DNA of 53,626 nt from Candidatus Portnoybacteria bacterium (GTDB lineage Bacteria > Patescibacteriota > Minisyncoccia > Portnoybacterales > GWB1-42-6). Below the pieces are notes generated by a model. It saw only the letters and a program-made list of their open reading frames with translations. It was not told where the DNA came from and did no database searches. A program made the position numbers and the translations under genes. The first letter of the stretch is position 1, and each line of letters opens with the position of its first letter. The stretch lies in the NCBI GenBank assembly GCA_028688325.1, contig JAQTYI010000001.1:246994-300619 (forward strand). The letters are read 5' to 3'. Positions 34,061-34,191 of the stretch are shown piece by piece.

Positions 34061-34191
34061 ATGCGGGCAGTGAAAATTCGACGGGATATTTTTTTTCAAA
34101 AATATCCCGGAATTATCACAATCCCGGATAACGAAAAGAATCGATAAATTATAAAAGAATTCGGCGCCATGCCGGATTTCCCTTGCCCGGT
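34061..34191 (+). promoter_or_regulatory. Start-codon-abutting inverted-repeat leader cassette, copy 3 (pcrA), more diverged
   Basis: ATGCGGGCAGTGAAAATTCGACGGG ... ATTTCCCTTGCCCGGT|ATG. A TATACT box at 34047-34052 ends 8 nt upstream. Confidence 0.5.

Follow-up and report, generated by a model that had tools for sequence, protein, structure and literature searches.

The 131-nt cassette between the promoter and the coding sequence of pcrA is very probably a decayed, non-coding MITE of a small mobile element of Patescibacteria, one with terminal inverted repeats. Insertion at the pcrA start duplicated a 4-nt target, TATG, and the second ATG still opens an intact pcrA. The family to which the cassette belongs is, apparently, an undescribed MITE-like family; full-text literature searches on GIY-YIG proteins with MITEs, start codons, leaderless genes, or Patescibacteria turned up no account of it. 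All coordinates are given on the + strand of the window, by which we mean the whole 53,626-nt stretch of DNA that was analysed, C3:246994-300619 of a 911-kb, 8-contig genome (G000). The cassette (34061-34191), which we call copy 3, is flanked by a divergent gene (start 33941, minus strand) and by pcrA, and the features discussed below are:

23836 to 23969, + strand: family copy 1, before rpsO (leave-one-out profile; empty site in G002).
30582 to 30714, + strand: family copy 2, before a dksA-like gene, of the subfamily closest to copy 3 (empty sites in G001 and G002).
34047 to 34052, + strand: TATACT, the host's −10 box for pcrA, 8 nt ahead of the left ATG (orthologue spacing).
34060 to 34063, + strand: left target duplication, CATG (ancestrally TATG), at the ancestral start-codon position (empty sites).
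34061 to 34147, + strand: 28-codon upstream ORF, reading MRAVKIRRDIFFQKYPGIITIPDNEKNR to its stop, in a different frame from pcrA and stopping 45 nt short of it.
34064 to 34082, + strand: 5′ terminal inverted-repeat arm, CGGGCAGTGAAAATTCGAC, 19 nt with one C deleted relative to the family.
34083 to 34170, + strand: interior, with hairpins at 34083-34108 and 34157-34179 in predicted folds.
34171 to 34190, + strand: 3′ terminal inverted-repeat arm, GCCGGATTTCCCTTGCCCGG, differing at 3 positions from the CTGCCC arm variant.
34183 to 34185, + strand: false pcrA start TTG, picked by mechanical ORF calling, inside the 3′ arm of copy 3.
34191 to 34194, + strand: right target duplication, TATG, containing the true pcrA start at 34192-34194 (orthologue N-terminus alignment).
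34192 to 36177, + strand: pcrA, an intact UvrD/PcrA-type helicase gene of 661 aa (Pfam; same-genus orthologues).

The first-pass annotation had taken copy 3 for a diverged relative of copies 1 and 2, and the relationship holds. The strings it quoted, ATGCGGGCAGTGAAAATTCGAC at 34061-34082 and ATTTCCCTTGCCCGGTATG at 34176-34194, are found where it placed them, each once in the window (chance expectation 0 to 0.04); TATACT does lie at 34047-34052, and the distance from ATG 34061 to ATG 34192 is indeed 131 nt. With copy 3 left out, a profile of the remaining 24 genomic copies recovers it at 34064-34194 on the + strand (28.8 bits, E 6.5e-8) and scores copies 1 and 2 at 83.6 and 71.6 bits (E 1e-21 to 1e-25); a repeat search links the 5′ end of copy 3 to window positions 23840 and 30586, that is, to the same two copies. 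The arms are of the GGGCAG/CTGCCC compensated variant also seen in copies C7:18219 and C3:340530. Length, which had been thought preserved between copies, is similar but not exact, with family ATG-to-ATG distances of 130 to 135 nt. The interior had been called unrelated, but its left half (34084-34133) is homologous to the interior of the copy 2 subfamily, matching an nhmmer subfamily profile at 10.1 bits, a score reached by none of 300 shuffles (shuffle maximum 4.1). Otherwise the original description stands: the whole-family interior profile scores the interior no higher than shuffles, its left half does not match main-subfamily copies, its right half has no recognisable relative either by BLAST of 16 family genomes or with the whole-family interior profile, and when all of copy 3 is compared by BLAST with those 16 genomes the arms alone match and the interior has no close relative.

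Copy 3 is the most decayed copy. Aligned in the 20-bp register of the family, its stem has 13 Watson-Crick pairs, 2 G.T wobbles, 4 mismatches (one of them the family-wide A.C), and 1 deleted base, leaving 15 of 20 arm positions pairable; typical copies have about 19 of 20, with 18 Watson-Crick pairs plus one G.T and one A.C. The arms do pair, but slightly more weakly than first proposed (~14 bp with 2 mismatches and 1 wobble). In the predicted RNA fold the terminal stem is reduced to 6 pairs, and in the predicted fold of the + strand DNA it is absent; two internal hairpins dominate instead. Median identity to the other copies is 0.58, the lowest of the 25, and best pairwise identity is 0.66, the second lowest (C8:196559 is lowest at 0.64). 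Neutral decay fits the eroded terminal hairpin better than maintained function; having lost one base and several pairs from its arms, copy 3 is therefore probably immobile and evolving neutrally. It is also more diverged than a very young insertion would be, and the source copy may already have been diverged when it inserted.

The first-pass annotation had argued that preserved geometry despite sequence drift pointed to function rather than transposition, and had proposed a comparison of pcrA upstream regions in related genomes. That comparison goes against the proposal. The element is absent from the 5′ end of pcrA in 15 of the 15 relatives for which this end was recovered (14 upstream regions read together, plus G003, the third of three same-genus genomes in the set), so the supposed leader is not conserved. 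Specifically, i) the pcrA site is exactly empty in G001, where TATACTtacttcgt is directly followed by ATGATTTTAAAA, and in G002, where TATACTtactgcgt is directly followed by ATGATTTTAAAA; ii) the filled site in G000 reads TATACTtaatccgc, ATG, the element (a 131-nt insert), and then ATGATTTTAAAA, and the arrangement in G001 and G002 is TATACT, 8 nt, and ATG, so that the sole difference is a 131-nt insert with one extra ATG; iii) a metagenome run, X1, contains the G000 window allele together with a second contig, about 13% diverged, that lacks the element at pcrA and joins 34055 to 34190 (skipping 34056-34189) with CCA between, giving TATACTTAACCAGTATG; and iv) run X3, from another study, has the filled allele, differing at 4 of 801 bases. 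Taken together, the filled and empty sequences show copy 3 to be a lineage-specific insertion that occurred after the split from the closest sequenced relatives, rather than a conserved leader; its geometry is preserved because the insertion mechanism sets it. Arm motifs are absent genome-wide from both G001 and G002, so the G000 copies appear to be younger than the split, or to have been lost in those two genomes. The suggestion that the family is older is borne out in one respect: many CPR lineages share the 20-nt arm, and copies in G000 are at most 89% identical.

Comparison with orthologues also settles where pcrA begins. The protein (UvrD-helicase, E 2e-92; UvrD_C, E 1e-76 in Pfam) is 83% identical to its same-genus orthologues, and seven pcrA orthologues start MIL(K/E)xLNxKQ(I/L)EAV at the ATG equivalent to 34192; the G003 N-terminus is MIFKGLNQKQ (MIFKGLNQKQIEAV). 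The earlier reading that pcrA starts at ATG 34192 and not at the TTG of the ORF track is therefore correct, the TTG being element sequence, and copy 3 does abut the true start codon. The first-pass annotation had held that orthologues lacking the element and starting further upstream would weaken the link to the start codon; the element is lacking in all of them, but the start is the same ATG. Since orthologues share ATG 34192 although they have no element, the link to the start codon stands and the interpretation of the element as a leader falls.

The sequences that flank the element show a 4-nt target-site duplication. The empty sites at pcrA read ...cgtATG in G001 and G002 and ...cagtATG in the X1 strain; copy 1 has AATG on both flanks, and the corresponding empty site in G002 ends ...ctaaATG. 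In 19 of 23 sense copies both ATGs are preceded by the same base (among them A/A twice, C/C once). Of 79 complete elements in other CPR genomes, 51 have the same four bases on either flank, namely TATG in 38, its complement CATA in 6, and TTTG, TATA, AATA, or CGTG in the remaining seven. By copy 1 with its G002 empty site and by these 51 flank identities, the duplication is 4 nt long. At copy 3 the left CATG and the right TATG disagree in 1 of 4 bases, which calls for one additional substitution. The same asymmetry of left C and right T is found eight times in all (copy 3, three others in G000, and four elsewhere), and the reverse is never found; at the foot of an intrastrand hairpin the left base would lie opposite the G of the right ATG, and a T.G mismatch there could have been corrected to C-G.

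An arm-motif scan of G000 followed by a profile search found 25 full copies of 130-137 nt, every one of which ends at an ATG that begins an ORF of 85 aa or more; among the genes behind them are rpsB, rpsO, rpsT, rplJ, gatB, smpB, tsaD, fpg, and pcrA. Twenty-three of the 25 have the same orientation to the gene, with the GTGAAAATT arm on the upstream side. Paired, the arms give a 20-bp stem in which the G.T at position 10 and the A.C at position 11 are fixed, and double compensatory changes are seen at stem positions 3, 6, 17, 18, 19, and 20. ORFs within the copies are only 9-36 codons long, the elements thus being small, non-coding, and dispersed, and an Rfam 15 scan of the window returned tRNAs and no family matching the element. 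Identity between any two of the 25 copies reaches 89% at most and gives no sign of recent activity in G000. Orientation bias, conserved arms, and repeated hits on orthologous genes in other genera could reflect selection on intact copies for a host function, and not insertion specificity alone. Terminal inverted repeats, a target duplication with an empty site, small dispersed copies, and a coding relative together characterise the family as MITE-like; where mobility is concerned, the observations are of presence or absence of copies between species and strains.

The coding relative in G000 is located at C3:338529-338844, where the family arms enclose an 87-aa ORF (C3:338557-338817) with a GIY-YIG domain (PF01541, E 2e-16); the unit lies after TATAAT plus 8 nt and has ATG on both flanks. 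The nearest solved relatives of the 87-aa protein are the UPF0213 proteins of PDB entries 1zg2 and 1ywl, and no NCBIfam family scores above its cut-off. The arrangement recurs in three MAGs, one of Sungiibacteriota, one of Parcubacteria, and a third. There, units of 318-330 bp carry the family arms around a homologous GIY-YIG ORF, are flanked by TATG on each side, and are directly followed by a host ORF. G003 has a 95%-identical fragment of the nuclease unit beside an arm, at a contig end. Coding units with family arms are thus 311-330 bp long, carry a GIY-YIG gene of ~87 aa, and are present in 4 genomes with a fragment in another, and the recurrence of the same arms with a homologous nuclease in distant genomes amounts to replication of the arm-nuclease association. 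A combined arm-motif and profile scan of G000 found no longer element with family arms. More widely, with each species represented by one genome, the exact 20-nt arm turned up in at least 113 stretches, from Portnoybacteria, other Parcubacteria, and Yanofsky-, Lipton-, Nealson-, Sungii-, Gottesman-, and Berkelbacteria MAGs; and about half of 30 other small GIY-YIG genes sampled from relatives occupy 270-330-bp units that have distinct inverted repeats of 15-25 bp. As a caution, the genomes richest in copies, G007 with 28 arm hits and G013 with 54, lack a close relative of the cognate nuclease; the best candidate is 55% identical and has different arms. From the arm-nuclease association we infer that the nuclease moves the family: it would mobilise the non-coding copies in trans, and probably recognises the arms as an intrastrand hairpin, as suggested by the compensatory changes that keep the stem and by the fixed G.T/A.C mismatch pair.

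Orientation tracks the gene rather than replication: in G000 it is 23:2 by gene and, with replication direction judged from GC skew, 15:10 by replication. Among 67 mid-size elements in a wider sample, 41 abut an ATG and its ORF in sense, 10 abut one in flipped orientation, and 13 abut no ATG; exceptions include TATA duplicated within a TATAAT box 7 nt before an ATG, GGAG/CCTC duplicated at a Shine-Dalgarno site, and TTG- or GTG-containing tetramers. Three genes carry an element in both G000 and another genus, with different interiors, lengths, and arm variants, and at one of the three the orientation differs too; these look like independent hits, not an ancient orthologous insertion. Twenty sites in G007 have no target gene in common with G000. 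A strict TAnnnT 5-10 nt upstream of the left ATG precedes 11 of the 25 copies in G000 and 16 of 46 elsewhere, against a background of 13% for random TATG sites and about 25% for gene starts generally, so the idea that every target is a leaderless promoter is only partly supported. These observations suggest that initiation regions are targeted, possibly as melted promoter DNA. A more specific proposal, which we regard as doubtful, is of a transposon whose sole protein, a GIY-YIG nuclease of ~87 aa, is directed to transcription-melted DNA and not to a fixed sequence; if true, it would account for leaderless-looking ATGs, −10 boxes, and Shine-Dalgarno sites as targets, for the gene-following orientation, and for repeat hits on housekeeping genes across genera, and copy 3 would be what is left of such an insertion at the promoter of pcrA.

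The insert sits between the −10 box of that promoter and the pcrA coding sequence. In 10 of 14 orthologues the pcrA ATG is preceded, at 6-9 nt, by TATACT, TATAAT, TATAGT, or TAAGAT; a −10-like hexamer is further upstream in G007, G009, and G021 and 34 nt upstream in G003, none is evident before G017 pcrA, and none of the 14 orthologues read has a Shine-Dalgarno sequence at pcrA. Genome-wide, TAnnnT peaks 6-8 nt before first ATGs and the Shine-Dalgarno signal is weak. The conserved −10 spacing suggests that the pcrA promoter would serve a leaderless mRNA. The left ATG of copy 3 keeps the ancestral 8-nt spacing to TATACT, as in G001, G002, and the X1 strain. Transcription would still start at the old position and give a pcrA mRNA with a 131-nt leader, and because of the ancestral spacing this transcript would begin with the AUG that opens the 28-codon ORF, which would presumably be translated. 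The left triplet is still ATG in 21 of the 25 copies, each opening an ORF of 9-36 codons of which none runs into the gene; ten copies encode MPGSENSAV from it, and the peptides are not conserved beyond the arm-encoded MPGSEN. An in-frame N-terminal extension from the duplicated ATG is rejected by an in-frame stop in every copy, copy 3 being out of frame altogether, and an internal promoter by promoter-like matches that number 10 in sense and 11 in antisense against a shuffle mean of 6.7, with no fixed position. The sequencing runs that contain the sequence are all DNA metagenomes.

Could the element nevertheless act as a conserved cis-regulatory RNA leader, whose hairpin controls the start codon and of which copy 3 is an old version under selection? 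The positions of the 25 copies, all at start codons and 23 in sense, the stem kept by compensatory changes, and an RNA fold of copy 3 better than that of shuffles (z = −4.3) would all be expected of such a leader; but that fold comes from unrelated internal hairpins while the terminal stem is eroded, the genes preceded are unrelated and the gene sets of G000 and G007 do not overlap, coding versions carry a nuclease gene, no Rfam family matches, and, above all, 15 of 15 relatives lack the element at pcrA, with exact empty sites and a target duplication at the site. We consider this explanation most improbable. That the element arrived by transposition and has since been exapted, so that it now modulates pcrA expression, is less improbable but still unlikely. 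Two routes can be imagined: translation of the 28-codon upstream ORF would unwind the leader, or RNase III would cut the arm duplex and so recreate a near-leaderless mRNA. The duplicated ATG is exactly at the ancestral position 8 nt after the −10 box, most copies (21 of 25) keep the left ATG with a short ORF that stops inside the element, and pcrA, being intact, must be expressed through the insert. RNase III is encoded in G000 and could process the arm duplex of intact copies, but is less likely to do so with copy 3, whose ~6 contiguous predicted pairs make a poor RNase III substrate. The upstream-ORF peptides, moreover, show no conservation past MPGSEN, and an internal promoter is unsupported.

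A different doubt concerns the agent rather than the fact of insertion. The GIY-YIG gene could be a passenger or homing gene, or could have a role at hairpins like that of Ssn in Neisseria transformation, and the family would then spread by some other route. Characterised GIY-YIG enzymes are nucleases and are not known to act in strand transfer, and the genomes with the most copies are without a close cognate nuclease. Ssn itself has been assigned to transformation, with mobility raised as a hypothesis (PMC11893778). Yet in at least 4 distant genomes homologous nuclease genes lie between the family arms, again with TATG flanks, about half of the sampled small GIY-YIG paralogues are in 270-330-bp units with 15-25-bp repeats of their own, and G000 has no other coding element with family arms. 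We rate a separate spreading route as rather unlikely, and retain the reading of copy 3 as a decayed, probably nuclease-mobilised MITE.

We wish to stress that copy 3 is of modest value taken alone, and that its value lies in the clean filled-versus-empty pair that pcrA provides at a conserved, leaderless-looking promoter, which makes both target choice and the expression of a gene behind a 131-nt insert testable. The mobile unit suggested by the family is very small, ~311-330 bp with one nuclease of ~87 aa. An insertion at a gene start spares the gene because the start codon is duplicated, an unusual mode of survival for a mobile element in a 0.9-Mb genome with little spare DNA. Such elements mislead start calling, as with the pcrA TTG in the arm, and can be mistaken for conserved leaders. 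If it recognises the arms as a hairpin, the nuclease is, like Ssn, a candidate sequence-specific tool for single-stranded DNA.

Several known systems share features with the family. Putative mobile promoters are cases in which the same short sequence lies directly upstream of many non-homologous genes; unlike them, the family has no consistent internal promoter, the host promoter being outside, on the upstream side. REP/BIME-RAYT and IS200/IS605 elements are similar in having hairpin-based repeats, a small single-gene element, and the likely recognition of a single-strand hairpin, but they lack an element-spanning terminal inverted repeat and a target duplication, and their orientation is linked to replication; membership in either type is thus rejected for the family, with its 4-nt duplication and its orientation bias of 23:2 by gene versus 15:10 by replication. 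The enzyme classes also differ, HUH Y1 transposases in REP-RAYT and IS200/IS605 and GIY-YIG here. The Correia or NEMIS elements of Neisseria are MITEs of ~100-150 bp with terminal inverted repeats of ~25 bp that are co-transcribed with their neighbours, and in RNA their arm duplex can be processed by RNase III, with a possible effect on expression. Our family resembles them as MITEs with terminal inverted repeats and they are the closest parallel in RNA-level consequences; however, Correia elements duplicate TA and have no start-codon preference, whereas the duplication in most family copies is (N)ATG. Correia elements have no known GIY-YIG partner and are not known outside Neisseria.

The closest described system to this start-codon family is Ssn with its NTS/SRM hairpin repeats. 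Ssn proteins are small GIY-YIG single-strand nucleases with their own hairpin repeats on both sides (Chenal et al. 2025, Nat Commun, PMC11893778); the repeats are also dispersed as many non-coding copies near genes, an architecture that the authors liken to that of an insertion sequence, although the role they report is in Neisseria transformation and mobility is raised as a hypothesis (PMC11893778). The SRM motif, HGTCWYN(0-2)YYVSBRHN(0-5)WNVSBRGN(0-2)RNCYNB (PMC11893778), matches neither any of the 25 copies nor the coding unit. It does have 3 matches elsewhere in the window, where true SRM/NTS-like hairpins constitute a separate family. As in Ssn, the nuclease gene of our family is bounded on both sides by its cognate repeat; unlike the separate ~28-nt hairpins of Ssn, these repeats are the arms of one inverted repeat around a ~90-nt interior, and the family is further distinguished by its 4-nt target duplication and its near-exclusive position at start codons.

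The orthologue of pcrA in the third genome of the genus (G003) is a single open frame of 1090 aa (L071, G003:C43:732-4000), in which an insert of ~430 aa starts directly past the DE of helicase motif II (VDE/CLPY...VHN/CQDT), a placement that is an intein signature. Upstream of this gene there are ~26 additional bases from TATACT to ATG, and the start-codon element is absent there. At the dksA orthologue of the same genome (L095, G003:C90), ~90 nt of unrelated sequence separates the TATACT box from the ATG and occupies the place equivalent to copy 2 in G000, the Portnoybacteria genome studied here; thus a different type of insert uses the same site.

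The two copies of the target duplication that flank the element are not always identical: in 8 elements the left copy reads CATG and the right TATG, and the opposite asymmetry was found in 0 cases. The asymmetry would fit T.G mismatch correction where a hairpin formed within one strand has its base. The elements concerned are:

window 34060, CATG left and TATG right
G000 C3:346932, the same
G000 C3:329778, the same
G000 C3:321749, the same
four loci in other genomes, the same

In the coding unit, element arms surround a GIY-YIG nuclease ORF. The arm mismatch pair of the G000 unit (C3:338529-338844) is AG on the left and GA on the right and, relative to the nuclease ORF, is swapped with respect to three units from other lineages (L136, L149, and L153). 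An inversion of the interior, produced by recombination of one arm with the other, may account for this swap.

The element also occurs in short forms of 60-80 nt that consist of both arms and a small loop. Those of G000 have GGAAGTG arms, and none adjoins an ATG; short forms are numerous in the related genome G007 (L074-L090), and several there adjoin start codons. The G000 short forms are:

C3:200828-200900
C3:206624-206695
C3:208265-208336
C3:329859-329929
C1:10733-10803

In another related genome (G013:C1, L005), the divergent rpmH and dnaA genes carry one element at each start codon, back to back within a single intergenic region. In G000, GC skew switches from negative to positive at C3 ~300-310 kb, just past the window end, and this probably marks the replication origin.

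The window holds other repeats as well, including an A/T-rich repeat of ~74 nt with a palindrome inside (CAAATTTCAAA...TTTGAATTTTTGAAATTTG):

36193-36298, two overlapping copies of the ~74-nt A/T-rich repeat, directly past the pcrA stop codon
4277-4350, a further copy of it
49663-49925 and 50581-50843, perfect direct repeat of 263 nt, spacing 918 nt, covering adjacent ORFs
2620-2721 and 4754-4855, direct repeat of 102 nt, 98% identical, spacing 2.1 kb

The 263-nt repeat could have arisen recently by tandem duplication, or it could stem from the assembly.

Three further hairpins match the published Ssn-related motif (PMC11893778), which has 35 matches across the whole of G000:

2019-2047, minus strand, motif match
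53370-53397, plus strand, motif match
53410-53438, minus strand, motif match

These three are members of a second hairpin-repeat family, distinct from the start-codon element, and the sequence at 53370 (TGTCATTCCCGCGAAGGCGGGAATCCAG) is nearly identical to the Neisseria NTS consensus.
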